From Struthio camelus (Eukaryota), in the NCBI RefSeq assembly GCF_040807025.1, contig NC_090970.1, positions 837,359-901,358 of the forward strand: DNA of 64,000 nucleotides, given 5' to 3'. Positions 3,716 to 64,000 of the stretch are shown here, in pieces. The position numbers were made by a program, and so were the translations under genes. Position 1 is the stretch's first letter. Each line of letters starts with the position of its first letter. Below the pieces are notes generated by a model. It saw only the letters and a program-made list of their open reading frames with translations. It was not told the DNA's origin and ran no database searches.

Positions 3716-3725
3716 GGCCCCTCAC

Positions 3726-4925: not shown

Positions 4926-4932
4926 CGGGCAC

Positions 4933-8460: not shown

Positions 8461-8538
8461 GCTGCGGCGGCGGGCGCTGATTGGCTGCGGATGTGGGGGC
8501 GGGGCCTGGGGCGGAGGGGGCGGGGCCTGGCGGCGGCC

Positions 8539-12060: not shown

Positions 12061-12153
12061 GGGAGACCCGAAACGCCGGCCCTCGAAGACCTGACGGACC
12101 CAGGCGTCCCGCACCCGGGGGGGGGGTGGGTGGGCCGCGCCGGTGTCGCCCAG

Positions 12154-21110: not shown

Positions 21111-21124
21111 GGCCCCTCACTCAC

Positions 21125-26550: not shown

Positions 26551-27099
26551 GGGGGGGCCGGACACCTGGGTCCCTCCCCGGACACCTGGGCCCCTCACCC
26601 GGGACGCCTGGGCCCCTTTCCCGGACACCTGGGCCCCTTCCCCTGGACACCTGGGCCCCTCCCCGGACGCCTGGGCCCCTCCCCGGACGCCTGGGCCCCT
26701 CCCGGGACGCCTGGGCCCCTCCCCGGACTCCTGGGCCCCTTCCCCGGACACCTGGGCCCCTTCCCCGGACGCCTGGGCCCTTCCCCGGACACCTGGGCCC
26801 CTTCCCCGGACACCTGAGTCCCTCCCCGGACGCCTGGGCCCATCACCCGGACGCCTGGGCCCCTTCCCCGGACGCCTGGGCCCCTCACCCGGACACCTGG
26901 GCCCGTTGCCCACTTCCGGGTTGCCCCTTTCCCTCGTTCCCCCCCCCCGTCCCCCGCCGGCCCGAACCAGCCAATCAGGAGGCGGCGCGGCGCTCACACC
27001 CCCCGCCGGGCCGGCCAATCAGAGTGCGGCTCTCCTGACACGCCTTCCCTCCCCCATCCACCCTAGGGGCCCAGGCGTCCGGGCCCTGCCCTACGCGTG

Positions 27100-33000: not shown

Positions 33001-36000
33001 GATTAGTAGATTATAATGTAGGTCGTGTTATGGGTGCTGGGCCCATCCCTGGGTCCCACCACGAGCTTCAGGTCCATCCGTGGGTCACACTATGGGTCTT
33101 GGGTCCATCTCTGGGGCACGGCGTGATTAGTAGCTCATAAAGTAGGTCCATCAAGGGGTGCTGGGTCCATCCCTGGGTCCCACCACGAGCTTCAGGTCCA
33201 TCCGTGGGTCACGCTATGGGTGCTGGGTCCCTGTATGGATCATGACATAGATCATGTTATGGGTGCTGGGTCCATCCCTGGGTCCCACTACAAGCTTCAG
33301 GTCCATGCCTGGGTCATGCTATGGGTGCTGGGTCCCTGTATGGGTCGCAACATGCTTAGTAGATGACAGTGTAGGTTGTGTTATGGGTGCTGGGTCCATC
33401 CCTGGGTCGCTGTATGGGTGCTGGGTCCATACTTGGACCATGCTATGGGTCTTGGGTCCAACTCTGGGTCACAACATGCTTAGTAGATGACAATGTAGGT
33501 CGTTTTATGGGTCTTGGGTCCATCCATGAGTCCCTGTATGGGTGCTGGGTCCACCCCTGGGTCACGCTATGGGTCTTGGGTCCATCCCTGGGTCCCACCA
33601 TGAGCTTCAGGTCCATGCCTGGGTCACGCTATGGGTGCTGGGTCCCTGTATGGGTCACAACATGCTTAGTAGATCACAACATAGGTCGTGTTATGGGTGC
33701 TGGGTCCATCCATGGGTCCCACCATGAGCTTAAGGTCCATGCCTGGGTCACGCTATGGGTGCTAGGTCCCTGTATGGGTCGCAACATGCTTAGTAGATGA
33801 CAGTGTAGGTCGTGTTATGGGTGCTGGGTCAATCCCTGGGTCGCTGTATGGGTGCTGGGTCCATGCTTGGACCATGCTATGGGTCTTGGGTCCATCTCTG
33901 GGGCGCAACATGATTAGTTAGATCATGACATAGATCATGTTATGGGTGCTGGGTCCATCCCTGGGTCCCACCACGAGCTTCAGGTCCATCCGTGGGTCAT
34001 GCTATGGGTCTTGGGTCCATCTCTGGGTCGCAGCATGCTTAGTAGATGACAGTGTAGGTCGTGTTATGGGTGCTGGGTCCATCCCTGGGTCCCTGTATGG
34101 GTGCTGGGTCCATGTATGGGTGCTGGGTCCATGCTTGGACCATGCTATGGGTCTTGGGTCCATCTCTGGGGCGCAACATGATTAGTTAGATCACAACATA
34201 GGTTGTGTTATGGGTGCTGGGTCCATCCCTGGGTCCCACCACGAGCTTCAGGTCCATGCCTGGGTCACGCTATGGGTGCTGGGTCCATCCCTGGGTCCCA
34301 CCACGAGCTTCAGGTCCATCCGTGGGTCATGCTATGGGTCTTGGGTCCATCTCTGGGGCACAGCATGATTAGTAGCTCATAAGGTAGGTCCATCAAGGGG
34401 TGCTGGGTCCATCCCTGGGTCCCACCACGAGCTTCAGGTCCATGCCTGGGTCACGCTATGGGTGCTGGGTCCCTGTATGGGTCACAACATGCTTAGTAGA
34501 TGACAATGTAGGTTGTGTTATGGGTCTTGGGTCCATCTCTGGGTCACAACATGATTAGTTAGATCATGACATAGATCATGTTATGGGTGCTGGGTCCATC
34601 CCTGGGTCCCACCATGAGCTTCAGGTCCATCCGTGGGTCACATTATGGGTCTTGGGTCCATCCCTGGGTCCCACCACGAGCTTCAGGTCCATGCCTGGGT
34701 CACGCTATGGGTGCTGGGTCCCTGTATGGGTCACAATGTGATTAGTAGATTATAATGTAGGTCGTGTTATGGGTGCTGGGTCCATCCCTGGGTCCCACCA
34801 CGAGCTTCAGGTCCATCCGTGGGTCACACTATGGGTCTTGGGTCCATCTCTGGGGCACGGCGTGATTAGTAGCTCATAAAGTAGGTCCATCAAGGGGTGC
34901 TGGGTCCATCCCTGGGTCCCACCACGAGCTTCAGGTCCATCCGTGGGTCACGCTATGGGTGCTGGGTCCCTGTATGGATCATGACATAGATCATGTTATG
35001 GGTGCTGGGTCCATCCCTGGGTCCCACTACAAGCTTCAGGTCCATGCCTGGGTCATGCTATGGGTGCTGGGTCCCTGTATGGGTCGCAACATGCTTAGTA
35101 GATGACAGTGTAGGTTGTGTTATGGGTGCTGGGTCCATCCCTGGGTCCCTGTATGGGTGCTGGGTCCATACTTGGACCATGCTATGGGTCTTGGGTCCAT
35201 CTCTGGGTCGCAGCATGCTTAGTAGATGACAATGTAGGTTGTGTTATGGGTCTTGGGTCCTTCTCTGGGTCACAACATGATTAGTTAGATCATGACATAG
35301 ATCATGTTATGGGTGCTGGGTCCATCCCTGGGTCCCACCACGAGCTTCAGGTCCATCCCTGGGTCACGTTATGGGTCTTGGGTCCATCCCTGGGTCCCAC
35401 CATGAGCTTCAGGTCCATCCCTGGGTCACGTTATGGGTCTTGGGTCCATCTCTGGGGCACAGCGTGATTAGTAGCTCATAAAGTAGGTCCATCAAGGGGT
35501 GCTGGGTCCATCCCTGGGTCCCACCATGAGCTTCAGGTCCATCCGTGGGTCATGCTATGGGTCTTGGGTCCATCTCTGGGTCGCAGCATGCTTAGTAGAT
35601 GACAGTGTAGGTCGTGTTATGGGTGCTGGGTCCATCCCTGGGTCCCTGTATGGGTGCTGGGTCCATGTATGGGTGCTGGGTCCATGCTTGGACCATGCTA
35701 TGGGTCTTGGGTCCATCTCTGGGGCGCAACATGATTAGTTAGATCATGACATAGATCATGTTATGGGTGCTGGCTCCATCCCTGGGTCCCACCACGAGCT
35801 TCAGGTCCATCCGTGGGTCATGCTATGGGTCTTGGGTCCATCTCTGGGGCACAGCATGATTAGTAGCTCATAAAGTAGGTCCATCAAGGGGTGCTGGGTC
35901 CATCCCTGGGTCCCACCACGAGCTTCAGGTCCATGCCTGGGTCACGCTATGGGTGCTGGGTCCCTGTATGGGTCACAACATGCTTAGTAGATGACAATGT

Positions 36001-37760
36001 AGGTTGTGTTATGGGTCTTGGGTCCATCTCTGGGTCACAACATGATTAGTTAGATCATGACATAGATCATGTTATGGGTGCTGGGTCCATCCCTGGGTCA
36101 CGTTATGGGTCTTGGGTCCATCCCTGGGTCCCACCATGAGCTTCAGGTCCATCTGTGGGTCACGCTATGGGTCTTGGGTCCATCCCTGGGTCCCACCACG
36201 AGCTTCAGGTCCATGCCTGGGTCACGCTATGGGTGCTGGGTCCCTGTATGGGTCACAATGTGATTAGTAGATTATAATGTAGGTCGTGTTATGGGTGCTG
36301 GGCCCATCCCTGGGTCCCACCACGAGCTTCAGGTCCATCCGTGGGTCACACTATGGGTCTTGGGTCCATCTCTGGGGCACGGCGTGATTAGTAGCTCATA
36401 AAGTAGGTCCATCAAGGGGTGCTGGGTCCATCCCTGGGTCCCACCACGAGCTTCAGGTCCATCCGTGGGTCACGCTATGGGTGCTGGGTCCCTGTATGGA
36501 TCATGACATAGATCATGTTATGGGTGCTGGGTCCATCCCTGGGTCCCACTACAAGCTTCAGGTCCATGCCTGGGTCATGCTATGGGTGCTGGGTCCCTGT
36601 ATGGGTCGCAACATGCTTAGTAGATGACAGTGTAGGTTGTGTTATGGGTGCTGGGTCCATCCCTGGGTCCCTGTATGGGTGCTGGGTCCATACTTGGACC
36701 ATGCTATGGGTCTTGGGTCCATCTCTGGGTCGCAGCATGCTTAGTAGATGACAATGTAGGTTGTGTTATGGGTCTTGGGTCCGTCTCTGGGTCACAACAT
36801 GATTAGTTAGATCATGACATAGATCATGTTATGGGTGCTGGGTCCATCCCTGGGTCCCACCATGAGCTTCAGGTCCATCCCTGGGTCACGTTATGGGTCT
36901 TGGGTCCATCCCTGGGTCCCACCATGAGCTTGAGGTCCATGCCTGGGTCACGCTATGGGTCTTGGGTCCATCTCTGGGGCACAGCGTGATTAGTAGCTCA
37001 TAAAGTAGGTCCATCAAGGGGTGCTGGGTCCATCCCTGGGTCCCACCATGAGCTTCAGGTCCATCCGTGGGTCATGCTATGGGTCTTGGGTCCATCTCTG
37101 GGTCGCAGCATGCTTAGTAGATGACAGTGTAGGTCGTGTTATGGGTGCTGGGTCCATGCCTGGGTCCCACCACGAGCTTCAGGTCCATCTGTGGGTCACG
37201 CTATGGGTCTTGGGTCCATCTCTGGGGCACAGCGTGATTAGTAGATCATAAAGTAGGTCCATCAAGGGGTGCTGGGTCCATCCCTGAGTCCCACCACGAG
37301 CTTCAGGTCCATGCCTGGGTCACGCTATGGGTGCTGGGTCCCTGTATGGGTCGCAACATGCTTAGTAGATGACAGTGTAGGTCGTGTTATGGGTGCTGGG
37401 TCCATCCCTGGGTCCCTGTATGGGTGCTGGGTCCATGCTTGGACCATGCTATGGGTCTTGGGTCCATCTCTGGGTCACAACATGATTAGTTAGATCATGA
37501 CATAGATCATGTTATGGGTGCTGGGTCCATCCCTGGGTCCCACCACGAGCTTCAGGTCCACCCCTGGGTCACGCTATGGGTTTTGGATCCATCCCTGGGT
37601 CCCACTACGAGCTTCAGGTCCATCCGTGGGTCACGCTATGGGTCTTGGGTCCATCTCTGGGGCGCAGCGTGATTAGTAGCTCATAAAGTAGGTCCATCAA
37701 GGGGTGCTGGGTCCATCCCTGGGTCCCACCACGAGCTTCAGGTCCATGCCTGGGTCACGC
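27100..37760. repeat. About 10.6-kb satellite array between the PIP4P1 promoter and PNP. Monomers of about 110-130 bp (e.g. ATGGGTCTTGGGTCCATCCCTGGGTCCCACCACGAGCTTCAGGTCCATSC...). 27.1-29.1 kb is a divergent GGGTCC-rich part; 29.1-37.76 kb is organised in a 3261-bp higher-order repeat (about 2.6 copies).
   Basis: Identical ORF translations recur exactly 3261 nt apart: 30117/33378, 30281/33542, 30676/33937, 31732/34993, 32238/35499, 32808/36069, 33254/36515. There is internal 1522/1739 sub-periodicity (31732 vs 33254). Confidence 0.9.
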
Positions 37761-38045
37761 TATGGGTCTTGGGTCCAGCCGTGGCTCCAAGCGTGGCTTC
37801 TGCCTCGCGCCGGGGGTCCCGCCCCGGGGTCCCGCCCCCTCCCCGCTCCTCCCACGTCCTCCCACGGCCCGTCCCACCACCTCCCCTCCCCTTGCCCGGC
37901 CCCGCGCCCCCCCGCCCCCGGCCCCGCCACGTCCCTATGACCTCCCAGACTCCAAAACACGTGTCGGACGGGTCCCGCGTGTCTTCCTCTCGGGGGCGCC
38001 GGCGTTGGCAGCTACGAGGCCTGCGCGGCGGCGGCAGCCTGGGTG

Positions 38046-40169: not shown

Positions 40170-40986
40170 GTGCGCCCGGACGCCGGGGCCCCCGCCCCCC
40201 CCACCCCCCCAGCCCTGCGCGCGCCCCACCCGGACGCCGGGGCCCCTCCTGAAACTCCTGGGCCCCTTCCCCGGACACCAGGGCCCCTCCCCCGGACGCC
40301 TGGGCCCCTCCCCGGACGCCTGGGCCCCTCCCCGGACGCCTGGGCCCCTCTCTGAACACCTGGGACCCCTCCCCGGACACCTGGGCCCCTCCCCGGACAC
40401 CTAGGCCACCTCCCCCGGACGCCTGGGCCCCCTCCCGGACGCCTGGGCCCCTTTCCTGGACGCCTGGGCCCCTTCCCCGGACGCCTGGGCCCCTTCCCCG
40501 GACACCTGGGCCCCTCCCCGGACACCTAGGCCACCTCCCCCGGACACCTGGGCCCCCTCCCGGACACCTGGGCCCCTTTCCCAGACACTGGGGCCCCTCC
40601 CCGGACGCCTGGGCCCCTCCTGAAACTCCTGGGCCCCTTCCCTGGACGCCTGGGCCCCCTCCCCGGACGCCTGGGCCCCCTCCCCCGGACACCTGGGCCC
40701 CTCCTGAAACTCCTGGGCCCCCCGTTCCCCGGACACCTGGGTCCCTCCCCGGACACCTGGGCCCCTTCCCCGGACACCTGGGCCCCTTTCCCAGACACTG
40801 GGGCCCTTCCCCGGACGCCTGGGCCCCTCCTGAAACTCCTGGGCCCCCTTCCCCGGACACCTGGGCCCCTCCTGAAACTCCTGGGCCCCCCGTTCCCCGG
40901 ACGCCTGGGCCCCGTGCCCGCACCCTGGCCCCCTCCCCGGCCCCCCGGCCCCCCACCGGCGGCCAGCTGAGGGCGGCCGGCGGCAG

Positions 40987-41189: not shown

Positions 41190-42780
41190 CGCGGGGGGCC
41201 CAGGCGGCCCGGCGGGGACGGAGGCAGGGGGCCCAGGAGTCCGGGGAGGGAGGAGAGGGCCCAGGAGTCCGGGCGGCTGCGGAGGGAGGGGGCCCAGGAG
41301 TCCGGGGAGGGAGGAGGGGGCCCAGGAGTCTGGGGAGGGGGCCCAGGAGTCTGGGCGGCTGCGGAGGGAGGGGGCCCAGGAGTCCGGGGAGGGACGGAGG
41401 GGGCCCAGGAGTCCGGGCGGCTGCGGAGGGAGGGGGCCCAGGTGTCCGGGGAGGGACGGAGGGGGCCCAGGAGTCCGGGCGGCTGCAGAGGGAGGGGGCC
41501 CAGGTGTCCGGGAACAGAGGGAGGGGGCCCAGGAGTCCGGGGAGGGAGGGGGCCCAGGAGTCCGGGCAGCGGCGCGGGGGGCCCAGGCGGCCCGGCGGGG
41601 ACGGAGGGAGGGGGCCCAGGAGTCCGGGGAGGGAGGAGGGGGCCCAGGTGTCCGGGCAGCGGCGCGGGGGGCCCAGGCGGCCGGGCGGGACAGAGGGAGG
41701 GGGCCCAGGAGTCCGGGGAGGGAGGGGGCCCAGGAGTCCGGGCAGTGGCGCAGGGGGCCCAGGCGGCCGGGCGGGACAGAGGGAGGGGGCCCAGGAGTCC
41801 GGGGAGGGAGGGGGCCCAGGTGTTCGGGGAGGGAGGGGGCCCAGGTGTTCGGGAAGGCAGTGGAGGGAGGGGGCCCAGGTGTCTGGGGAGGGAGGAGGGG
41901 GCCCAGGAGTCCGGACGGGCAGGGAGGGAGGGGGCCCAGGAGTCCGGGGAGGGAGGGGGCCCAGGTGTCCGGGCAGCGGCGCGGGGGGCCCAGGCGGCCC
42001 GGCGGGGACGGAGGGAGGGGGCCCAGGAGTCTGGGGAGGGAGGGGGCCCAGGTGTCCAGGAAGGGAGGGATGGGGCCCAGGAGTCCGGGTGGCTGAGGAG
42101 GGAGGGGGCCCAGGAGTCCAAGGAGGGAGGAGGGGGCCCAGGCGTCCGGGGAGGGAGGAGGGGGCCCAGGAGTCCGGGGAGGGAGGGGGCCCAGGTGTCC
42201 GGGCAGCGGCGCGGGGGGCCCAGGCGGCCCGGCGGGGATGGAGGGAGGGGGCCCAGGAGTCCGGGGAGGGAGGGGGCCCAGGAGTCCGGGGAGGGAGGGA
42301 GGGGGCCCAGGAGTCCGGGCGGCTGCAGAGGGAGGGGGCCCAGGTGTCCGGGGACAGAGGGAGGGGGCCCAGGTGTTCGGGGAGGGAGGAGGGGGCCCAG
42401 GTGTTCGGGGAGGGAGGGAGGGGGCCCAGGCGTCCGGGCGGGCAGGGGCGGAGGGGGCCCAGGAGTCCGGGGACGGAGGGAGGGGGCCCAGGAGTCTGGG
42501 GAGGGGGCCCAGGTGTCCGGACGGCTGCGGAGGGAGGGGGCCCAGGAGTCCGGGGAGGGAGGGAGGGGCCCAAGCGTCCGGGGAGGGGCCCAGGCGTCCG
42601 GGAAAGGGGCCCAGGCGTCCGGGGAGGGGCCCAGGCGTCCGGGGAAGGGGCCCAGGCGTCCGGGAAAGGGCCCAGGTGTCCGGGGAGGGACCCAGGCGTC
42701 CGGGGAAGAGGCCCAGGCCTCCGGGAAAGAGGCCCAGGCGTCCGGGCCGGGACCCAGGCGTCCGGGAGAGGTTGGGTACG
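41190..42780. repeat. Minisatellite variant (GGGGGCCCAGGAGTCCGGGGAGGGAGGR...)n filling PNP intron 4
   Basis: Read directly. Confidence 0.9.
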
Positions 42781-43259: not shown

Positions 43260-45260
43260 AACCCGCACTCAGCCCGCTCTTTGCAGACATGTTGCATGCA
43301 GCTTGCACACGCTTAGCGCGCTCTTTGCGTGTCCTTTGCAGGCGCTTTGCACGTGCTTGGCGTGCGGTTTGCACACACTCGGCCCGCGCTTTGCCCGCTC
43401 TCTGCGTGCACTTCGCGCGCACGTTGCGTGCACTTTGCGTGCTCTTTGCACGCGCGTTGCACGCACGTTGTGTGCGCATTGCGTGCAGTTTGCATGCGCT
43501 TTCTGCGCTCTTTGCACGCTCGTTGCCTGCACTTTGCGTGCACGTTGCGTGCACTTTGCGTGCTCTTTGTGTACACGTTGCACACATGTTGCACGCACGT
43601 TGCACGCACGTTGCATGCACTTTGCGTGCACATTGCGTGCTCTTCTCGTGCTCTTTGCATGCACGTTGCATGCACGTTGCAGGCACTTTGTGTGCACGTT
43701 GCCTGCACGTTGCACACACGTTGCGTGCACATTGCATGCACTTTGCACACACGTTGCACACACATTGCACGCACGTTGTGTGCTCTTTGCGTGCTCTTTG
43801 CCTGCACTTTGTGTGCACGTTGCGTGCATGTTGCACGCACTTTGTGTGCTCTTTGCACACACATTGCCTGCACTTTGCACACACGTTGTATGCACTTTGC
43901 ACGCACATTGCTTACACTTTTGCACGCACCTTGCATGCACTTTGTGTGCACATTGCACGCACTTTGCACACACATTGCACGCACTTTGCATGCACTTTGC
44001 GGGGTCTTTGCACACACATTGCCTGCACTTTGCACACACATTGCACGCACTTTGTGTGCACGTTGCATGCACTTTGCATGCACTTTGTGTGCACATTGCA
44101 TGCACTTTGCACACACGTTGCACACACATTGCACGCACTTTGCACACACTTTGCGTGCACTTTGCACGCACATTGCACACACATTGCACGCACTTTGCGT
44201 GCTCTTTGCCTGCACTTTGCACGCACGTTGCCTGCACTTTGCACGCACTTTGCACGCACTTTGCACGCACATTGCACACACTTTGCCTGCACTTTGCACG
44301 CACTTTGCACACACATTGCACGCACTTTGCATGCACTTTGCGGGGTCTTTGCACACACATTGCCTGCACTTTGTGTGCTCTTTGCCTGCACTTTGCACAC
44401 ACATTGCACGCACTTTGCACACACATTGCACGCACTTTGTGTGCACGTTGCATGCACTTTGCATGCACTTTGTGTGCACATTGCATGCACTTTGCACACA
44501 CGTTGCACACACATTGCACGCACTTTGCACACACTTTGCGTGCACTTTGCACGCACATTGCACACACATTGCACGCACTTTGCGTGCTCTTTGCCTGCAC
44601 TTTGCACGCACGTTGCCTGCACTTTGCACGCACTTTGCACGCACTTTGCACGCACATTGCACACACTTTGCCTGCACTTTGCACGCACTTTGCACACACA
44701 TTGCACGCACTTTGCATGCACTTTTTGTGCACTTTGCCTGCACTTTGCACGCACATTGCACACACTTTGCCTGCACTTTGCACGCACTTTGCACACACAT
44801 TGCACGCACTTTGCATGCACTTTTTGTGCACTTTGCATGCACTTTGCACGCACATTGCACACACGTTGCCTGCACTTTGCACGCACTTTGCACGCACTTT
44901 CCGTGCTCTTTGCCTGCACTTTGCACACACATTGCACACACTTTGCACGCACTTTGCGTGCTCTTTGCCTGCACGTTGCCTGCACTTTGCACACACATTG
45001 CCTGCACTTTGCACGCACTTTGCGTGCTCTTTGCCTGCACTTTGCACACACATTGCACACACATTGCACACACTTTGCATGCACTTTGCACACACTTTGC
45101 GTGCTCTTTGCCTGCACTTTGCACGCACGTTGCCTGCACTTTGCCTGCACTTTGCACACACTTTGCACGCACTTTGCCTGCACTTTGCCTGCACGTTGCC
45201 TGCACTTTGCACGCACTTTGCACGCTCTTGCCGTGCTCTTGGCGTGCTCTGGCCGTGCTC
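43260..45260. repeat. About 2-kb tandem repeat (TTGCACGCACTTTGCACACACA, about 11/22-bp) in PNP intron 5, preceded by a GTAATTAC/TAATTA cluster at 43030-43200
   Basis: Read directly. Produces the spurious cysteine-rich ORFs on both strands (43269-45431 etc.). Confidence 0.9.
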
Positions 45261-45659: not shown

Positions 45660-47760
45660 GCGGTTCGGGGAGGGGCGGGGGGGGGGCCCAGGCGTCCGGG
45701 TGCTTTAACCCCCTCCCGCCCCCCCCCATCCCCTCCCACAAAGGGCCCAGGCGTCCGGGGACCCGCCATCCTGCCCATCCCCCCCCTAAAGGGCCCAGGT
45801 GTCCGGGGACCCTCCATCCTGCCCATCCCCCACCCCGAAGGGCCCAGGCGTCCGGGGACCCACCATCCTGTTCATCCCCCCCCAAAGGGCCCAGGCGTCC
45901 GGGTGTCTTAACCCCCCCCCCAAAGGGCCCAGGCGTCCGGGGACCCTCCATCCTGCCCATCCCCCCCCCCCAAAGGGCCCAGGCATCCGGGTGTCTTAAC
46001 CCCCCCCCACCCCAATGGGCCCAGGCGTCCGGGTGTCTTAACCCCCCCCCCAAAGGGCCCAGGCGTCCGGGGACCCTCCATCCTGCTCATCCCCCCCCTA
46101 AAGGGCCCAGGCGTCCGGGTGTCTTAACCCCCCCCCCAAAGGGCCCAGGCGTCCGGGGACCCTCCATCCTCTTCATCCCCCCCCTAAAGGGCCCAGGCGT
46201 CTGGGTGTCTTAACCCCCCCCATCCCCCACCCCAAAAGGGCCCAGGCGTCCGGGGACCCACCATCCTGCCCATCCCCCACCCCCAAAGGGCCCAGGCGTC
46301 CGGGTGTCTTAACCCCCCCCCATCCCCACCCCAAAAGGGCCCAGGCGTCCGGGGACCCTCCATCCTGCCCATCCCCCCCCCAAAGGGCCCAGGCGTCCGG
46401 GTGTCTTAACCCCCCCCCCAAAGGGCCCAGGCGTCCGGGTGTCTTAACCCCCCCATCCCCCCCCCAAAAGGGCCCAGGCGTCCAGGGACCCACCATCCTG
46501 CCCATCCCCCCCCCAAAAGGGCCCAGGCGTCCGGGGACCCTCCATCCTGCCCATCCCCCCCCTAAAGGGCCCAGGCGTCCGGGTGTCTTAACCCCCCCCA
46601 TCCCCCCCCCAAAAGGGCCCAGGCGTCCAGGGACCCTCCATCCTGCCCATCCCCCCCCAAAAGGGCCCAGGCGTCCGAGTGTCTTAACCCCCCCCCCCAA
46701 AGGGCCCAGGCGTCCGGGTGTCTTAACCCCCCCCCAAAAGGGCCCAGGCGTCCGGGGACCCGCCATCCTGCCCATCCCCCCCCCAAAGGGCCCAGGCATC
46801 CGGGTGTCTTAACCCCCCCCATCCCCCACCCCGAAGGGCCCAGGCGTCCGGGGACCCTCCATCCTGCCCATCCCCCCCCAAAAGGGCCCAGGCGTCCGGG
46901 TGTCTTAACCCCCCCCCCAATGGGCCCAGGCGTCCGGGTGTCTTAACCCCCCCCCCAAAAGGGCCCAGGCGTCCGGGTGTCTTAACCCCCCCCCCCAAAA
47001 GGGCCCAGGCGTCCGGGGACCCTCCATCCTGTTCATCCCCCCCCCAAAGGGCCCAGGCGTCCGGGTGTCTTAACCCCCCCCATCCCCCCCCCAAAGGGCC
47101 CAGGCGTCCGGGGACCCGCCATCCTGCCCATCCCCCCCCAAAAGGGCCCAGGCGTCCGGGTGTCTTAACCCCCCCCCCCCAATGGGCCCAGGCGTCCGGG
47201 TGTCTTAACCCCCCCCCCAAAAGGGCCCAGGCGTCCGGGTGTCTTAACCCCCCCCCCCCCAAAAGGGCCCAGGCGTCCGGGGACCCGCCATCCTGCCCAT
47301 CCCCCCCCTAAAGGGCCCAGGCGTCCGGGGACCCGCCATCCTGTTCATCCCCCCCCAAAGGGCCCAGGCGTCCGGGTGTCTTAACCCCCCCCCAAAAAGG
47401 GCCCAGGCGTCCGGGGACCCTCCATCCTGCCCATCCCCCACCCCGAAGGGCCCAGGCGTCCGGGGACCCTCCATCCTGCCCATCCCCCACCCCGAAGGGC
47501 CCAGGCGTCCGGGGACCCTCCATCCTGCCCATCCCCCCCCCAAAGGGCCCAGGCGTCCGGGGACCCTCCATCCTGCCCATCCCCCCCCCAAAGGGCCCAG
47601 GCGTCCGGGGACCCTCCATCCTGCCCATCCCCCACCCCGAAGGGCCCAGGCGTCTGGGGACCCGCCATCCTGCCCATCCCCCACCCCGAAGGGCCCAGGC
47701 GTCCGGGGACCCTCCATCCTGCCCATCCCCCCCCCAAAAGGGCCCAGGCGTCCGGGTGCC
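45660..47760. repeat. About 42-84-bp tandem repeat (AAAGGGCCCAGGCGTCCGGGTGTCTTAACCCCCCC / ...GGGGACCCTCCATCCTGCCCATCCCCCCCC)n downstream of the PNP stop codon
   Basis: Read directly. Confidence 0.9.
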
Positions 47761-48130: not shown

Positions 48131-49868
48131 AGCACCAATTTAATGGGAAAAGGGGCGGAGGGGGAGGTAGGGGGAGAGACGGGGCCCCTCCCCCACCCCC
48201 AGGGGGCCCAGGCGTCCGGGCACGGCCCCTCCCCCCAGTCTGGGGTATTTATAGCCTGGAGATGCCCCTGCCCCTCCCCCACCCTGGAGGGGCCCAGGCG
48301 TCCGGCTCGTGGGTGCCGGGGTGGGGGTGGGGGGGGCTGGTCGGGAACCCGGACGCCTGGGCCCCTTCCCGGACACCTGGGCCCCTCGCCGGACGCCTGG
48401 GACCTTCCCGGACGCCTGGGCCCCCTTGCCCGGACGCCTGGGCCCCTCACCCGGACGCCTGGGCCCCTTCCCCGGACACCTGGGTCCCTCCCCGGACGCC
48501 TGGGCCCCTCCCCGGACGCCTGGGCCCCCTCCCCGGACGCCTGGGCCCCTCCCGGACGCCTGGGCCCCTTCCCCGGACACCTGGGCCCCCTCCCCGGACA
48601 CCTGGGCCCCTCCCCAGACGCCTGGGCCCCTTCACCGGACGCCTGGGCCCCCTCCCCGGATGCCTGGGCCCCTCCCCCGGACACCTGGGCCCCTTCCCCG
48701 GACACCTGGGCCCCTTCCCCGGACGCCTGGGCCCCTTCCCTGAACGCCTGGGCCCCTCCCTGGACGCCTGGGCCCCTTCGCGGACACCTGGACCCCTGTC
48801 CCGGACGCCTGGGCCCCTCCCGGACGCCTGGGCCCCCTCCCCGGACACCTGGGCCCCTCCCCGGACACCTGGGCCCCCCCCGGACACCTGGGCCCCTCCC
48901 CGGACGCCTGGGCCCCTTCCCTGAACGCCGGGGCCCCTTCCCGGACACCTGGGCCCCTTCCCCGGACACCTGGGCCCCTCCCCTGGACGCCTGGGCCCCC
49001 TCCCCGGACGCCTGGGCCCCTTCCCCGGACACCTGGGCCCCTCCCCGGACGCCTGGGCCCCTTCCCCGGACACCTGGGCCCCTCCCCTGGACGCCTGGGC
49101 CCCCTTGCCCGGACGCCTGGGCCCCGCGCGGGCAGTGAAGCAGTTCTGGGCCGGCGGCGGCGCCCGGACGCCTGGGTCCCCCGGAGGCCCCGGGAGGGGG
49201 AGCGGGAGCACCCGGACGCCTGGGCCCCGTCCCAGAAAGAGGCGCTGCGGGGGGGGGGGAGACGCCTGGGGCTCCGAGCGGGGGAGGAAACCGGTTCCTC
49301 CGGGGACGCCTGGGCCCCCCCCTTCCCGGACGCCTGGGCCCCGCCCTGCGGGGGTGTCCCGGGTGGGGGAGGGGCGGGGATCCCCGGCGGCGGCCGGGGG
49401 GGGAGGGGCGGGGGGAGGGGCAGGGGTGGGGGAGGGGCCGCTCGCCGTCAAAGGCAAGTGAAGGTGGCCGGAGAACGGAGGTACCCGGACGCCTGGGCCC
49501 CTTCTCGGACGCCTGGGCCCCTTTTTAGGCCTAACCCGGACGCCTGGGTCCCTTGCGGGGCTTAGTCGACCGCTTTGGGCACCTGCCCCCCGGACGCCTG
49601 GGCCCCTCTCAGACGCCTGGGTCCCTGCCCGGACGCCTGGGCCCCTCCCGGACGCCTGGGTCCTTTTTGGGTGCCGCTGGGACGCCTGGGCCCCTTCCCA
49701 GATGCCTGGGTCCCTGCCCGGACGCCTGGGCCCTTCCCAGTCTCCTGGGACCCGGACGCCTGGGTCCTCCCCCCTCCTCGCCAGGGGAATTATGGGATAG
49801 CGGGGGTGTCGATGGTGGGGGGGGTCGGAGGTCACGACCTCTGACCCTTCCCCCCCCCCCCCAAGGCC

Positions 49869-49916
49869 ATGACGGAGCTGCGGGATGTCGGCGCCGCCCC
49901 CCCGGGGCCCCCCGAG
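49869..49916 (+). CDS. NDRG2: NDRG2 first coding exon (ATG 49869; donor GAG|GTGAGC)
   Basis: [16 protein letters not shown] matches the human N-terminus MAELQEVQITEEKP. Confidence 0.6.
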
Positions 49917-50856
49917 GTGAGCGCACCCCTCCCCCAGCCCCGGGGGCCCCGGTGTCCGGGGAGGGGGCCCAGGTGTCTGGGCGACGGGGGCCCAGGTGTC
50001 CGGGGAGGGGCCCAGGCGTCCGGGGAGGGGCCCAGGTGTCCGGGCGAGGGGGGCCCAGGTGTCTGGGAGAGGGGCCCAGGTGTCCGGGGAGGGGCCCAGG
50101 TGTCCGGGCGAGGGGGGCCCAGGTGTCCGGGGAGGGACCCAGGTGTCTGGGAGAGGGACCCAGGTGTCCGGGCGAGGGGGGCCTAGGCGTCCGGGGAGGG
50201 GCCTAGGCGTCCGGGCGAGGGGGGCCCAGGTGTCCGGGCGAGGGGGGCCCAGGCGTCCGGGCAAGGGGCCCAGGTGTCCGGGGAGGGGCCCAGGTGTCCG
50301 GGAAGGGGCCCAGGTGTCCGGGGAGGGGCCCAGGCGTCCGGGGAGGGGCCCAGGTGTCCGGGGAAGGGGCCCAGGTGTCCGGGCGAGGGGGGCCCAGGCG
50401 TCCGGGCAAGGGGCCCAGGTGTCCGGGGAGGGGCCCAGGTGTCCGGGGAAGGGGCCCAGGTGTCCGGGGGGGGGCCCAGGTGTCCAGGGAAGGGGCCCAG
50501 GTGTCCGGGCAAGGGACCCAGGTGTCCAGGAAGGGGCCCAGGCGTCCAGAGAGGCCCCTCAGAGCCTTCCTGGGGCGGGGGGGGGGGTTAAGGAGAAGTA
50601 ATTGGAGGGGAGGGCTGTATTAAGGGTTAATTAATACTTAATTAAGGGTTAATTAAAGGTTTATTAATGGTTAATTAACGGTTAATTACGTCTGCAGTCG
50701 GGAGGGTAATCGAGGCGACGAGGGGGCGATTTTGGGGGGGTATTTGGGGAGGGTGATTAATCACGGGGGGGTGATTAATTGCAGGGGGGGTCAATTAAGG
50801 GTTAATTGGGGGGGGGGGACATGGAGGACGGTTCATGACGGGTGTCCCCCCCGCAG

Positions 50857-50965: not shown

Positions 50966-50989
50966 GTGAGTGCCGGACGCCTGGGCCCC

Positions 50990-51900
50990 CGTCTCCCCCG
51001 GACGCCTGGGCCCCTTCCTCCATTGGGTGGACCCTTCCCCGGACGCCTGGGCCCTTCCCCGGACACCTGGGCCCCTGCCCCGGACGCCTGGGCCCCTTCC
51101 TCCATTGCATGGACTCTTCTCCGGACGCCTGGGCCCCCTTCCCCGGACACCTGGGCCCCTGCCCCGGACGCCTGGGCCCCTTCCTCCGTTGCATGGACTC
51201 TTCTCCGGACGCCTGGGCCCCTTCCCCGGACGCCTTGGCCCCTTCCTCCACTGGGTGTACCCTTCCCCGGACGCCTGGGCCCCCTCCCCGGACGCCTGGG
51301 CCCCCTCCCCGGACACCTGGCCCCCTTCCCCAGACACCTGGCCCCCTTCCCCGGATGCCTGGGCCCCCTTCCCCGGACGCCTGGGCCCCTTTCCCTGGAC
51401 GCCTGGGCCCCTTCTTCCATTGCGTGGACCCTTTCCCGGACGCCTGGGCCCCTTCCCCGGATGCCTGGGCCCCTTCCTCCACTGGGTGTACCCTTCCCCG
51501 GACGCCTGGGCCCTTTCCCTGGACGCCTGGGCCCCTTCCCCGGATGCCTGGGCCCTTCCTCCGTTGCATGGACTCTTCTCCGGACGCCTGGGCCCCCATC
51601 TCGCCCGGACGCCTTGGCCCCTTCCTCCATTGGGTGGACCCTTCCCCGGATGCCTGGGCCCCTTTCCCGGACGCCTGGGCCCCTTCTTCCATTGCGTGGA
51701 CCCTTTCCCGGACGCCTGGGCCCCTTCCTCCATTGCGTGGACCCTTTCCCAGATGCCTGGGCCCCCTTCCCCGGACGCCTGGGCCCTTCCCGTGTTGCAT
51801 GGGCCCCCTTCCCCGGACGCCTGGGCCCTTCCCCCATTGGGTGGACCCTTCCCTGGATGCCTGGGCCCCTTCCTCCATTGGGTGGACCCCTCCCCGGACG
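50990..51900. repeat. About 60-bp repeat (GGACGCCTGGGCCCCTTCCTCCATTGGGTGGACCCTTCCCC)n in an NDRG2 intron
   Basis: Read directly. Confidence 0.85.
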
Positions 51901-51934
51901 CCTGGGCCCCTCTCCCCCTCTTCCCCCCCCCCAG

Positions 51935-60060: not shown

Positions 60061-60112
60061 CCCGCCAAGCTCACCGAGGCCTTCAAGTACTTCGTGCAGG
60101 GCATGGGCTACA
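60061..60112 (+). CDS. NDRG2: NDRG2 exon
   Basis: [17 protein letters not shown](M) matches human [18 protein letters not shown]. Donor a|GTGAGT. Confidence 0.92.
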
Positions 60113-60114
60113 GT

Positions 60115-61260
60115 GAGTAATTAGCGCGCCGCTTCTTAATTAATTAAAGCCCTGGGGGGTGCTGGGGGGGGGGGTTAGGTTGCCAGGGGCAATTAGGTTC
60201 CCCCATAGGGCAATTAACCCCCCTCAGGAGCTATTAGCTCCCCCCATAGGGTAATTAAACTCCGTGTAGGGTAATTAAGCCCCCCTAGGGGCAATTAGCT
60301 CCCCCCCATATGGTAATTAACCACCCCATAGGGTAATTAAGCCCCCCTAGGGGCAATTAGCTCCCCCCATATGGTAATTAACCCCCCCATAGGGTAATTA
60401 ACCCCCACCAAGGGCAACTAGCTCCCCCCCATAAGGTAATTAACCTCCCTGTAGGGTAATTAAGCCCTCCCAGGGGCAATTAGCTCCCCCTACAGGGTAA
60501 TTAACCCCTCCCAGGGGCAATTAGGTCCCTTCATAGGGTAATTAAGCCCTCCCAGGGGCAATTAGCTCCCCCTATAGGGTAATTAACCCCCCCCAGGGGC
60601 AATTAGGTACCTTCATAGGGTAATTAAGCTCCTCATAGGGCAATTAGCTCCCCCCATAAGGTAATTAAGCCCTCCCAGGGGCAATTAGCTCTCCCTATAG
60701 GGTAATTAACCCCCCCCAGGGGCAATTAGGTCCCTTCATAGGGTAATTAAGCTCCTCATAGGGCAATTAGCTCCCCCCATAGGGTAATTAAGCCCTCCCA
60801 GGGGCAATTAGCTCCCCCTACAGGGTAATTAACCCCCCCCAGGGGCAATTAGGTCCCTTCATAGGGTAATTAAGCTCCTCATAGGGCAATTAGCTCCCCC
60901 CATAGGGTAATTAAGCCCTCCCAGGGGCAATTAGCTCCCCCCATAGGGTAATTAAGCCCTCCCAGGGGCAATTAGCTCCCCCCATAGGGTAATTAACCCC
61001 CTTATGGAGTAATTAAGCCCCCCCAGGGGCAATTAGTTCCCTCCATAGGGTAATTAACCCCCTTATGGGGCAATTAGCTTCCCTCATAGGGTAATTAACC
61101 CCCTTATGGAGTAATTAAGCCCCCCCAGGGGCAATTAAGTCCCCCCGTAGGGTAATTAACCCCCTTATGGGGCAATTAGCTCTCTCCATAGGGTAATGAA
61201 CCTCCCCTCCCCCCGTTCCGGGTAATTAAGCCCCCCCCGGGTATTTACCCCCCCCCGCTC
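60115..61260. repeat. About 40-bp tandem repeat (GGGTAATTAAGCCCTCCCAGGGGCAATTAGCTCCCCCATA)n of about 28 copies in the last NDRG2 intron, with a TAATTA core every about 20 bp
   Basis: Read directly. Starts right after the exon donor at 60113. Confidence 0.85.
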
Positions 61261-61669
61261 CGGGTAATTACCCTCTCCCCCCTCCCCCCAGTCCCCAACC
61301 TGCCCGACCGCCGCCTCGGCCCAGGTACCGGCCGACACGCGTGTGCGGGGGGCGGGGGCAGGTCACGTGTGCTGTGCTCCGCCCCCTCCGCGGTCACGTG
61401 TGCTGCCCCACCCCCCCCCCCCACCGTCACGCGTGTGCGCCTCTCTCCCCCCTCCCTGCACTACGTCACGTGTGCTCCTCCCCCTCCAGGCGGGGGGGGC
61501 GTGGCCGGGGGGTGGAGGGGGCGTGGCCGGCGGGGAAGGGGGACACGCAGCCAATGGGGCGCGGCGCGGGCTCCCGGGGGGCGTGGCCAAGCGGGAAGGC
61601 GGGGCGGGGTGGAGAATGGAGGGGCGTGGCCGGCGGCGGGCTGGGCCAATGGGGTCGCTGCTGACTGGG

Positions 61670-62770
61670 CCGGGGAGCCGTTGCCGGGGCAACGGGGCAC
61701 TGTGGAGGGTTGGGCGGAGGGGGCGTGGCCGGCGGCGGTCTGGGCCAATGGGATGGCTGCTGACTGGGCCGGGGAGGGGGGGGGGAGTGTTGCCGGGGCA
61801 ACGGGGCGCGGAGGGGAGGGCTGCTGACTGGGCGGGGGGAACGTTGCCAGGGCAACGGGGCGCGGAGGGGAGGGCTGCTGACTGGGCGGGGGAACGTTGC
61901 CAGGGCAACGGGGCGCGGAGGGGAGGGCTGCTGACTGGGCGGGGGAACGTTGCCAGGGCAACGGAGCGAGGAGGGGAGGGCTGCTGACTGGGCGGGGGAA
62001 CGTTGCCAGGGCAACGGGGCGCGGAGGGGAGGGCTGCTGACTGGGCGGGGGAACGTTGCCAGGGCAACGGGGCGCGGAGGGGAGGGCTGCTGACTGGGCG
62101 GGGGAACGTTGCCAGGGCAACGGGGGGCGGAGGGGAGGGCTGCTGACTGGGCGGGGGGGAACGTTGCTACGGCAACGGGGCGCGGAGGGGAGGGCTGCGG
62201 CGGGCTGGGACAATGGGATGGCTGCTGACTGGGCGGGGGGAACGTTGCCAGGGCAACGGGGCGCGGAGGGGAGGGCTGCTGACTGGGCGGGGGAACGTTG
62301 CCAGGGCAACGGAGCGAGGAGGGGAGGGCTGCTGACTGGGCGGGGGAACGTTGCCAGGGCAACGGGGCGCGGAGGGGAGGGCTGCTGACTGGGCGGGGGG
62401 GAACGTTGCTACGGCAACGGGGCGCGGAGGGGAGGGCTGCGGCGGGCTGGGACAATGGGATGGCTGCTGACTGGGCGGGGGGAACGTTGCCAGGGCAACG
62501 GGGCGCGGAGGGGAGGGCTGCTGACTGGGTGGGGACAGCGTTGCCAGGGCAACAGGGCGCGGAGGGGAGGGCTGCGGCGGGCTGGGCCAATGGGGTGGCT
62601 GCTGACTGGGCCGGGGGGGGGGGAGCGGGAGTGTTGCCGGGGCAACGGGGCGCGGAGGGGAGGGTAGCGGTGGAGGGGGCGTGGCCTGCAGCGGTCTGGC
62701 CCAATGGGGTGGCTGCTGACTGGGTCGGGGAGAGGGAAGCGTTGCCGGGGCAACGGGGGAAGCGTTGCAG
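61670..62770. repeat. About 59-bp tandem repeat of about 18 copies in the last NDRG2 intron, each containing the palindrome GTTGCCAGGGCAAC (RFX X-box consensus GTTGCC-NN-GGCAAC)
   Basis: Unit GGCTGCTGACTGGGCGGGGGAACGTTGCCAGGGCAACGGGGCGCGGAGGGGAGG. Variants GTTGCCGGGGCAAC and GTTGCTACGGCAAC. Followed at 62660-63030 by about 8 copies of GGGGGCGTGGCC (GC-box like) just upstream of the terminal exon. Confidence 0.8.
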
Positions 62771-63051
62771 CGGAGGGGGCGTGGCCAGCGGTGAAGTGGG
62801 CCAATGGGGCGGGAGGGGGCGTGGCCAGCGCGTGTGTATCGACGGTGGGGAGAACGGGCCAAGAGGAAGGGGGCGCGGCCGGGGTGGGCGTGGCCGGGGT
62901 GGAATGGGCGTGGCCAGCGGAGGGAGTGGGCGTGGCCAGGGGGCAGCAGCCAGCGCTCTCCCTGCCGGAGCTGCGCTATTACGCGGGGGGGCGGGGGCGT
63001 GGCCTCCGAGGGGCGGGGGCGTGGCCTAACTCGCCCCCGCCCCCTCCGCAG

Positions 63052-63179
63052 TGGCATCGTCGTGCATGACACGGCTGTCGCGGTCGCGCACGGCCTCGCT
63101 CTCCAGCGGCGCCTCGGGCGACGGCGGCCGGGCCCGGAGCCTGTCGCGGGGCAGCGAGGCTTCGCCCGCCGCCTGCTGA
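63052..63179 (+). CDS. NDRG2: NDRG2 terminal coding exon (TGA 63177-63179)
   Basis: Acceptor cccctccgcag. (M)[41 protein letters not shown] matches human [40 protein letters not shown].... Shorter Ser/Arg tail than human. Confidence 0.85.
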
Positions 63180-63189
63180 ACCCGCCGCC

Positions 63190-64000
63190 CCCTCCCCAAA
63201 TCCTCCCCAGATCCCCCCCGGACTCCATAGCCCCCCCCCCAAAACCCTCCCCAGACTCGAAATCCCCCCAAATCCTCCCCAGACGCCCCCCCCCCGGACT
63301 CGATACCCCCCCAATATCCCCCCAAATCCTCCCCAGACCCCCCTGGACTCGATATCCCCCCCGATATCCCCCCCAAAACCCTTCCCAGACCCGATATCCC
63401 CAATATCCCCCCATATCTTCCCCAGACCCCCCCCCGGACTCGATGTCCCCCCCAATATCCCCCCAAATCCCCCTGGACTCGATATCCTCCCAATATCCCC
63501 CCAAATCCTTCCCAGACCCCCTCCCTGGACTTGATATCCCCCCCAATATCCCCCCAAATCCTTCCCAGACCCCCCCTGGACTCGATATCCCCCCAATATC
63601 CCCCCAAATCCTCCCCAGATCCCCCTGGACTCGATATCCTCCCCAATATCCCCCCAAATCCTCCCCAGACCCCCTCTCAGACTCGATATCCCCCCCGATA
63701 TCCCCCCCAAATCCTTCCCAGACCCCCCGGGACTCGATATCCTCCCCAATATCCCCCCAAATCCTTCCCAGACCCCCTCTCAGACTCGATATCCCCCCCA
63801 ATATCCCCCCAAATCCTCCTCAGACCCCCTCTCAGACTCGATATCCTCCCAATATCCCCCCAAATCCTTCCCAGACCCCCTCTCAGACTCGATATCCCCC
63901 AATATCCCCCCAAATCCTCCTCAGACCCCCTCTCAGACTCGATATCCCCCCCAATATCCCCCCAAATCTTCCTCAGACCCCCTCTCAGACTCGATATCCC
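63190..64000. repeat. About 60-bp tandem repeat (CCCCAGACCCCCTGGACTCGATATCCCCCCAATATCCCCCCAAATCCT)n in the NDRG2 3'UTR
   Basis: Read directly. Begins 10 nt after the stop codon and continues to the window end. Confidence 0.85.

Follow-up and report, generated by a model that had tools for sequence, protein, structure and literature searches.

Does a dense tandem array of binding sites for a dimeric transcription factor, deep inside the last intron of a gene, have to be read as a regulatory element, or can it be a by-product of repeat turnover? The question is raised by a stretch of 64,000 nucleotides of the ostrich genome (Struthio camelus, assembly GCF_040807025.1, contig NC_090970.1, positions 837,359 to 901,358 of the forward strand), here called the window and numbered from its first letter. 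In the last intron of NDRG2, at 61670-62770, it contains a series of palindromes resembling the X-box bound by RFX proteins. The original prediction, made from the letters of the window, described about 18 perfect sites in a unit of about 59 bp, and left the choice between an RFX sink or enhancer and a satellite whose unit happens to be palindromic. The array is probably a locally generated, GC-rich intronic minisatellite, a case of the "sequence stuttering" of avian dot and microchromosomes, and not a purpose-built RFX platform.

Direct reading and a pattern search give 17 X-box-type sites, in place of the 18 or so predicted, of the form GTTGC[CT]NNGGCAAC between 61680 and 62754, all on the forward strand and in one tandem array. 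An eighteenth copy is truncated, with the left half-site only (GCGTTGCAG). The description of all copies as perfect GTTGCC-AG-GGCAAC palindromes holds in part: eleven of the 17 have the exact sequence (GTTGCCAGGGCAAC), while four read GTTGCCGGGGCAAC, a variant that sits in the older edge units, and two read GTTGCTACGGCAAC. The inverted half-sites GTTGCC and GGCAAC are perfect in 15, and the two-nucleotide spacer (AG, GG or AC) is itself non-palindromic. The likeness to RFX sites is confirmed, as every site matches the consensus 5'-GTNRCC(0-3N)RGYAAC-3' (GTNRCCNNRGYAAC), as given in PMC5752003, on at least one strand and 15 match it on both. Most X-boxes also have the C and G flanks (aaCGTTGCC..GGCAACGg). 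NFI, AP-2 and CTCF were compared with the palindrome by eye and rejected, none fitting as well as RFX. Judged by this match, binding by RFX proteins is plausible wherever the DNA is accessible.

The array is far above chance, with 32 strand-matches to the consensus in the window against 0.30 expected from shuffled sequence, and no consensus X-box is present in the rest of the 64 kb. However, the copies are not independent, so the relevant chance is that of one minisatellite unit carrying the motif. From base composition, the probability that the 8,026 nucleotides of distinct unit sequence hold the X-box consensus is about 0.03 per window, rising to 0.13 if any spacer of 0-3 nucleotides is allowed and falling to about 0.001 if perfect half-sites are required. 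For a single window, such an occurrence is rare; in a scan of a whole genome that accepts any well-known motif, it would be unremarkable.

The spacing of the X-boxes is 53-55 bp in 11 of 16 intervals and 81, 81, 93, 108 and 109 bp in the others (mode 53, mean 66 bp). Tandem Repeats Finder (TRF) detects a 53-bp period with 95% matches and a higher-order period of 242 bp with 96% matches; the predicted 59 bp corresponds to no real period. When the array is cut at each X-box, three nested types of unit are obtained. Long units are present at both edges, with the GG-spacer X-box variant that is also the emu form. Medium units lack the GC box, and the short units, 11 copies in total, lack both the GC box and the CCAAT segment. 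A medium unit differs from a short one by a 27-bp segment lying between two GGCTGC direct repeats; once this is taken out, the two agree except for the variant X-box bases and a single G of the G-run. Among themselves, the short units show 95-100% identity, a sign that they were amplified or homogenised recently. An array with divergent units at its edges, homogenised copies in its centre, subunits derived by deletion and a higher-order period has the typical make-up of a minisatellite shaped by unequal exchange or slippage. Minisatellites consist of head-to-tail units of about 10 to 100 bp or more with high identity, and the array is built in this way; its composition is marked by a GC content of 0.75, an observed/expected (o/e) CpG ratio of 0.78 and a G-skew of +0.47.

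Such an array is at home in its surroundings. Tandem repeats found by TRF cover 72.6% of the window, which contains 66 non-overlapping arrays with a period of at least 15. The consensus unit holds a perfect palindrome (spacer of at most 4) with arms of at least 6 bp in 12 of these, and of at least 7 bp in five. Units with a palindrome are thus commonplace in the window, and what stands out is only that this one coincides with the RFX site. The X-box unit, the X-box and the 13-mer GCTGCTGACTGGG that accompanies it were found nowhere else in the window, nor in the non-orthologous parts of the seven other loci described below, and an exact search with the unit gave no hits in metagenome contigs. 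The unit is thus not a dispersed satellite across these sequences, in contrast to the 21-bp GGGGCCCAGGCGTCCGGGGAA family, which forms at least 12 arrays in the window. A species-specific satellite at many unrelated loci, which had been named as the outcome that would speak against the RFX proposal, is not what is seen in the available sequence, where the unit is confined to this intron.

Real promoters of the window have been multiplied as well. Between the start codons of OSGEP (reverse strand, ~7790) and APEX1 (forward strand, ~8540), a 70-bp unit is repeated 7.3 times at 97% identity (7952-8464), each copy with a CCAAT box (GCTGATTGGCTGG) and GC boxes, and this array looks like a "stuttered" bidirectional promoter. 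Upstream of the 5' coding exon of the PIP4P1/TMEM55B-like gene (reverse strand), a 103-bp unit is repeated 3.3 times (25861-26201, in the region 25767-26230). Its units contain CACGTGAC (CLEAR/E-box-like, six copies in the region), ATTGG, CCGCCC boxes and a 13-nucleotide palindrome GT(C/T)GCTAGGCGAC. Modules of transcription factor sites are thus multiplied here by tandem duplication irrespective of any need for more copies, which weakens the step from a dense array of strong sites to a selected platform. The palindrome, as GCGT(C/T)GCTAGGCGAC, is 12/13 identical to the classical EF-C/RFX1 site, GTTGCTAGGCAAC, and the PIP4P1 array is a second, independent array of RFX-like palindromes in the window.

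The orthologous NDRG2 loci of emu (GCA_036370855.1), seriema, swan goose, cuckoo, blue jay, alligator and turtle were compared with that of the ostrich. Ostrich and emu represent the palaeognaths; no further palaeognath NDRG2 was present among the protein matches, and kiwi, rhea, tinamou and cassowary thus lie outside the sample. The check for the repeat at orthologous loci, proposed together with the prediction, gives a divided answer. In emu, an array is found at the same position, directly upstream of the terminal exon, with five consensus X-boxes (four GTTGCCGGGGCAAC and one GTTACCAGGGCAAC) and two decayed ones (GTTGCCAGGGGAAC). In seriema, goose, cuckoo, jay, alligator and turtle, the last intron contains no X-box, nor a GTTGCC half-site, except for a single one in alligator, where the intron is ordinary unique sequence. 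As the array is common to ostrich and emu, it is older than their split, the deepest one among living palaeognaths; it is not confined to one species, nor is it widely conserved. The two species differ in copy number and unit structure, with 17 copies in units of 53-109 bp in ostrich and seven in units of 55, 75 and 131 bp in emu. The emu unit has other boundaries, comprising one or more GC boxes, CAGCCGCCAGCAGACCCCGCATAGAA and the X-box; CCAAT+GCTGCTGGCTGGGG, a module of the ostrich unit, is present just once in the emu intron, away from these units, at ~16930 of the emu locus (L001). The differing unit boundaries mean that amplification went on separately in the two lineages.

The GC boxes have a wider distribution. 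The predicted group of about eight between the array and the terminal exon is present, as four, three and one of three forms; a further five are found ahead of the array (61497-61721, the last within its first unit), and another within it (62677). In the last introns of the six birds, GGGCGTGGC occurs 90 times in sense and never in antisense orientation (13, 40, 4, 24, 4 and 5 copies), compared with none in alligator and one in turtle. In ostrich, emu, seriema and goose, the same succession is found: a TAATTA repeat, a TCACGTG/TGACGTCA cluster, the GC-box array and the 3' splice site. The ostrich TAATTA repeat is homologous to a 21-bp array of emu (L001 14935-16441), and the emu TCACGTG-type cluster (L001 16513-16690) has exact words of up to 20 nucleotides in common with that of ostrich.

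Arrays of GGGGGCGTGGC(C/T), resembling SP/KLF sites, are located in the window at 62755-63031 and 61486-61721, and in the other loci at L001 16700-18150, L002 8215-8510, L003 28230-29450, and in L005 and L006; in the birds, these boxes are concentrated in the last NDRG2 intron and rare in the rest of the gene. An SP/KLF-like tandem family has thus apparently persisted in one intron across all birds sampled. The goose last intron (L003 28380-28560) contains five tandem copies of CACGTCACTTCCTGTCCCC and several of TGACGTCA before the GC boxes; the component resembling E-boxes or cAMP response elements (CRE) varies by lineage, with the order of motif classes kept. A second emu array, made up of GGGGGCGGAGCC and CACGTCACAGA units, lies in an NDRG2 intron further 5' (L001 12788-13622).

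The GC box offers a source for the palindrome. Sequences intermediate between the two are present in emu (GTGGCCAAGGCAGT, GTGGCCAGGGCAGG, GTGGCCATGGCAGA and GTGGCCTGGGCAGA, with GTGGCC-NN-GGCAG(N) occurring five times) and in seriema (GTGGCCTCGGCAAG, GTGGCCTGGGCAGG and GTGGCCTAGGCACT). The GC box contains GTGGCC, which already fits the half-site GTNRCC, and GTGGCC-NN-GGCAG is only two to three substitutions away from GTTGCC-NN-GGCAAC; from this we infer that the X-box derives from a GC-box unit. The reverse route, in which the GC boxes would be decayed remnants of an ancestral X-box, is less likely because GC boxes are so widespread. As local origin implies, the unit is found only here in the 64 kb, proto-units without the X-box flank the array and GC-box intermediates exist; a permissive BLAST search with the X-box unit gave no additional decayed copies beyond the GC-box flanks.

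The last NDRG2 introns of birds contain an old, sense-oriented array of GGGGGCGTGGCC boxes (SP/KLF-type) between the TCACGTG-type cluster and the 3' splice site, and in ostrich and emu some of its units have a full X-box palindrome. In the palaeognath stem, one such unit would have acquired the X-box by the two or three substitutions, and X-box-bearing units would then have been amplified independently in each lineage by unequal exchange or replication slippage. In ostrich, a unit of about 108 bp (X-box, GC box, CCAAT and GCTGCTGACTGGG) would have lost its GC box to give the 81- and 93-bp units, and the 27-bp deletion between the GGCTGC repeats would have led to the 53-bp unit, which was presumably amplified recently and organised into the 242-bp higher-order repeat. 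The 17 consensus RFX dimer sites would be a by-product, with no sequence sign of maintenance for RFX binding. At 60171-60187, the first unit of the 41-bp repeat in the 5' part of the intron reads GGTTGCCAGGGGCAATTAGG, that is, the left half-site of the X-box followed by AGGGGCAA, and is close to the decayed emu GTTGCCAGGGGAAC; this likeness may be a coincidence or reflect shared ancestry of the TAATTA repeat and the X-box unit.

Is the X-box itself under constraint? Ostrich and emu have exact words of 13-25 nucleotides in common in each repeat family of the intron, namely the TAATTA repeat, GGTCACGTGTGCT, the GC boxes and their flanks, GGGCCAATGGGGT and the X-box. On this evidence, the two introns are homologous throughout and slowly diverging. 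A footprint of the X-box between the two species was considered as evidence for constraint and rejected, since the exact words that the species have in common are just as long in all the repeat families of the intron. Among the ostrich units, all 17 of 17 have the 13-mer GCTGCTGACTGGG unchanged, compared with 11 of 17 for the X-box 14-mer.

Several observations weigh against a minisatellite that carries its X-boxes passively. The half-sites have one variable column in 12 in ostrich, as opposed to 20 in 24 for the flanks (two in 12 and 12 in 24, respectively, in emu), a comparison biased by the fact that copies were picked by the motif and that changes in G-run length inflate flank variation. 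The variation inside the motif lies mostly in the spacer, as would be the case for an RFX site under constraint. In each of the two palaeognath lineages, it was units with an X-box that were amplified, and with differing boundaries, which could mean that the X-box itself was selected. For a random unit to hold an X-box with perfect half-sites is rare, at the aforementioned value of about 0.001 per window. Lastly, the region 61300-63179 resembles a CpG island (GC 0.75-0.79, CpG o/e 0.74-1.19, ~1.9 kb; thresholds GC > 0.55, CpG o/e > 0.6, length > 500 bp) and combines E-box, GC-box, CCAAT and X-box motifs, the vocabulary of the real promoters of the window; by its motif content, this promoter-like setting keeps a regulatory reading alive.

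These points would favour a functional homotypic cluster, in which the array acts as an RFX-dependent intronic enhancer, silencer or boundary for NDRG2 or a neighbour and has been kept and amplified in palaeognaths via cooperative binding of dimers. The fit of all sites to the consensus, with perfect half-sites and C/G flanks in 15, and an age greater than the ostrich-emu split agree with such a role. Nevertheless, it seems unlikely. With the X-boxes absent from four neognaths, alligator and turtle, the cluster is not needed for general NDRG2 function. The consensus is lost in two of the seven emu copies, and two ostrich copies are weakened and one is truncated. The whole intron, even where it resembles no transcription factor site, is equally conserved between ostrich and emu, the neighbouring 13-mer is more invariant than the X-box, and the near-identical short units point to recent turnover and not to old constraint. 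The array lies about 12 kb downstream of the NDRG2 start codon, away from the promoter-proximal position of RFX targets. The literature searched contains neither a link between NDRG2 and RFX (co-mentions are incidental) nor a precedent for an array of RFX sites; the X-box 14-mer was not found in it, and RFX, X-box, tandem repeat and satellite co-occur only in unrelated reviews. As a sink, finally, 17 dimer sites would on general grounds be negligible, a vertebrate genome holding thousands of X-boxes, and this part of the prediction is quantitatively implausible. On balance, the evidence leans towards no constraint specific to the X-box. Between the options offered at the outset, the palindromic satellite is favoured over the RFX platform by the repeat load, the anatomy of the array and the derivation from GC boxes.

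A further reading would be a palaeognath-specific RFX cluster, born de novo from the SP/KLF-box minisatellite and then kept and re-amplified in both ostrich and emu for an enhancer or boundary function, dependent on RFX, that it has in the intron at the 3' NDRG2 CpG island. This combination is quite improbable; if true, "stuttering" would create, and then tune by copy number, a new transcription factor input to a gene.

The function might instead reside in the GC-box/E-box module. The region 61300-63051 would then be a bird-wide, orphan intragenic CpG-island promoter or enhancer (E-box/CRE, SP/KLF and CCAAT), of which the X-boxes are a stuttered piece. The common order of motif classes in ostrich, emu, seriema and goose, the concentration of GC boxes in the last intron of all six birds and the recurrence of the motif vocabulary in the true PIP4P1 promoter array are in line with this, as is the CpG o/e of the 3' half of the intron, which is 0.43-1.08 in birds and 0.07 in alligator. 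However, no transcript, exon or RNA family is detectable (Rfam gave only sub-threshold microRNA noise in the intron), and no open reading frame runs on into the terminal exon. The strict 90:0 sense orientation is expected from common descent of tandem copies without function, and the high CpG content may stem from GC-biased gene conversion, which can raise it on microchromosomes. We consider this explanation decidedly doubtful.

A role of nucleic-acid structure is very unlikely. Here, the sense-strand G-runs would act as G-quadruplexes (G4), R-loops or intronic splicing enhancers, and palindrome hairpins would promote slippage. The array does have a strong G-skew and 15 G4-type motifs, (G3+N1-7)x4, on the sense strand, 14 per kb compared with 2.4 per kb in the whole window; the GC boxes are all sense in all birds, and the palindrome folds into a hairpin with a 6-bp stem. 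Yet other arrays of the window equal or exceed its G4 density, on either strand (for example 43 motifs in 38-40 kb), and the hairpin is weak (-5.9 kcal/mol as DNA, z about -2), with z = -0.2 in the context of the full unit. A cruciform or hairpin was rejected as a structural explanation for these last reasons. An assembly artefact, with GC-rich repeats mis-assembled or artificially expanded, can hardly account for the array: GC-rich tandem repeats of avian microchromosomes are hard to assemble (PMC12954441), but a homologous array stands at this place in the independent emu assembly, the copies of the ostrich array are not identical but ordered variants with an edge-to-centre structure, and its flanking exons are intact and match the annotated ostrich protein, although the copy number itself could be wrong.

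The closest counterpart of the locally generated minisatellite is found in chicken, where introns of dot-chromosome genes are filled by "sequence stuttering" blocks of tens to hundreds of bp that are local in origin, species-specific in structure and length-polymorphic (PMC12954441, Genome Biol Evol 2026; one of the paralogon tables there includes NDRG2). The last NDRG2 intron is of this kind, comprising a 41-bp array, E-box and GC-box repeats and the X-box array, and the window is likewise GC-rich and gene-dense, with a composition (GC 55-80%) and a repeat load that would fit a dot chromosome. It differs in two respects. Promoters (OSGEP/APEX1 and PIP4P1) are stuttered here as well as introns, and the repeat families and their order are common to ostrich and emu, and the GC-box array to six birds, so the seeds are old though the copies turn over. 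The persistence of stuttered-intron families at orthologous positions, the X-box since the ostrich-emu split and the GC boxes across the sampled birds, qualifies the stress laid in PMC12954441 on independent, recent expansions. In this reading as a stuttered intron, the array is one more locally expanded minisatellite in a repeat-dominated region and not a regulatory discovery. It would also be a traceable case in which repeat turnover converts a GC-box unit into a perfect palindrome for another transcription factor family, 17 times over.

Compared with classical GC-rich minisatellites, the head-to-tail units of 53-109 bp, the G/C strand asymmetry, the divergent edges, the homogenised centre and the 242-bp period are all familiar; what differs is that the unit holds a complete 14-16-bp match to a dimeric transcription factor site, seen in one ostrich haplotype. 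Known functional X-boxes are single or few and promoter-proximal. Foxj1 and Ift172 are examples (PMC5752003). The ostrich sites resemble those of ciliary promoters, the X1 box of major histocompatibility complex (MHC) class II genes and the viral EF-C/MDBP sites in their consensus fit, two-nucleotide spacer and mostly perfect half-sites, but they are 17 predicted sites in tandem, deep in a last intron and not conserved outside palaeognaths. In MHC class II-type S-X-X2-Y modules, the X and Y (CCAAT) boxes have fixed order and spacing. Such a module was tried and rejected, as CCAAT is present in five of the 17 units ending in an X-box and missing from the 11 short ones, the distance from CCAAT to X-box varies (34, 44, 46 and 40 bp), and orientation and order do not fit. 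Tandem platforms for a transcription factor, with occupancy and function shown by experiment, are the CTCF-binding DXZ4 and FIRRE macrosatellites and the GGAA microsatellites bound by EWS-FLI1. They share with the predicted RFX sites of the ostrich array the homotypic arrangement of one factor's motif per unit. If RFX does bind, neognaths (0 copies), emu (5-7) and ostrich (17) would provide a natural copy-number series for the effects of homotypic site number.

The placement in the last NDRG2 intron is secure. The host gene, on the forward strand, was located with a tblastn probe followed by a protein search; its start codon is at 49869 and its product contains the Pfam Ndr domain. A rough concatenation of the spliced exons gives a translation that best matches NDRG2 of ostrich (88%) and emu (82%), followed by those of other birds and vertebrates, and, taken one by one, the exons show 95-100% identity to the NDRG2-like isoforms annotated for Struthio camelus. 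The terminal exon is 97.6% identical to XP_068777970/71 across the last 42 residues, and the 3' splice junction reproduces the annotated ostrich protein (...GMGY-M-ASSCM...). The features of the intron and the array are listed in the table, together with those of a repeat family discussed below.

Table. Coordinates of the last NDRG2 intron, of the X-box array and its surroundings, and of the GGGGCCCAGGCGTCCGGGGA(A) arrays of the window.
Feature	Position	Strand	Remarks
Penultimate NDRG2 coding exon (...AKLTEAFKYFVQGMGY)	60061-60112	+	donor GT at 60113
Last NDRG2 intron	60113-63051	+	donor GT 60113, acceptor AG 63050-63051
41/123-bp TAATTA-type repeat (CCAGGGGCAATTAGC...GGGTAATTAACCCC)	60183-61285	+	fills 5' part of intron; CpG o/e 0.03
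(G)GTCACGTGTGCT(G) box cluster in C-runs	61330-61480	+	CACGTG at 61364, 61395, 61467, plus CACGCGTG variant
Upstream GC-box/CCAAT zone, proto-unit without X-box	61486-61679	+	63-73% (weak) homology to X-box unit
GGGCGTGGCC in upstream zone	61497, 61519, 61579, 61622
CCAAT in upstream zone	61551, 61646
First GCTGCTGACTGGG, upstream zone	61657
X-box starts	61680, 61789, 61843, 61896, 61949, 62002, 62055, 62108, 62163, 62244, 62297, 62350, 62405, 62486, 62540, 62633, 62741	+	pattern search
Long edge unit, 109 bp	61680-61788	+	GG-spacer X-box, GGGGCGCGGAGGGGAGGG-like sequence, GC box GGGGGCGTGGCC, CCAAT, GCTGCTGACTGGG, G-run
Seven short units, 53-55 bp	61789-62162	+	X-box, GGGGCGCGGAGGGGAGGG, CTGCTGACTGGG, GGGGGAAC
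Medium unit, 81 bp	62163-62243	+	GTTGCTACGGCAAC and (A)CAAT, without GC box
Three short units	62244-62404	+
Twin medium unit, 81 bp	62405-62485	+
One short unit	62486-62539	+
93-bp relative of medium units	62540-62632	+
Second long unit, 108 bp	62633-62740	+
Truncated 18th X-box copy	62762-62770	+	left half-site only; read directly
Downstream GC-box zone	62755-63031	+	7 GGGCGTGGCC and 1 GGGGGCGCGGCC, all sense; CpG o/e 0.83
Exact GGGGGCGTGGCC in downstream zone (4)	62776, 62816, 62994, 63016		positions of core GGGGCGTGGCC
TGGGCGTGGCC in downstream zone (3)	62886, 62906, 62928		positions of core GGGCGTGGCC
GGGGGCGCGGCC in downstream zone (1)	~62871
Polypyrimidine tract and 3' splice site (...cccccgccccctccgcAG)	63032-63051	+
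Terminal NDRG2 coding exon (...ASSCMTRLSRSRTASLSSGASGDGGRARSLSRGSEASPAAC)	63052-63179	+	stop codon 63177-63179
GGGGCCCAGGCGTCCGGGGA(A) arrays	4-587, 3104-3723, 3999-4929, 10960-12062, 16579-17716, 19846-21118, 21582-22919, 23876-25238, 26558-26904, 40229-40940, 42561-42771, 45725-47756, 48348-49125, 49943-50547, 50973-51917

A sharp CpG boundary divides the intron: the TAATTA-type repeat has a CpG o/e of 0.03 (2 CpGs in 1 kb, at 52% GC) versus 0.74-0.83 in the adjoining sequence, which suggests very different germline methylation or gene-conversion histories of neighbouring arrays. Directly 3' of the NDRG2 stop codon, at 63200-64000, a C-rich 52-bp repeat (...CCCCCCAAATCCTCCCCAGACCCC...GACTCGATATCC...) is located, with a homologue in emu (L001 18378-19263). 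It contains nine G4-type motifs on the C strand, a strand bias opposite to that of the intron array.

The genes of the window are, in order, OSGEP (reverse), APEX1 (forward), PIP4P1/TMEM55B (reverse), PNP (forward) and NDRG2 (forward), the gene neighbourhood of human 14q11.2. A family of 20-21 bp, GGGGCCCAGGCGTCCGGGGA(A), occurs in at least 15 separate arrays of either orientation, spread over the introns of all five genes and the intergenic sequence; in contrast to the X-box unit with its single locus, this family is a dispersed satellite. A PNP intron contains an 11/55/66-bp array (43293-45229) with about 175 copies of TTTGCA[CT]GCAC, TGCATGCA palindromes and the near-octamer TTTGCAT, another motif resembling a transcription factor site that is multiplied by a repeat. 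Between PIP4P1 and PNP, a block of about 8.7 kb (29079-37788) is made up of 31/62/124/373-bp repeats (GGTCCATCCCTGGGTC...) with a GC content of only 0.55, which sets it apart as a compartment of its own. It has a large-scale internal duplication, the TRF rows of 30948-33459 recurring with identical scores at 34209-36614.

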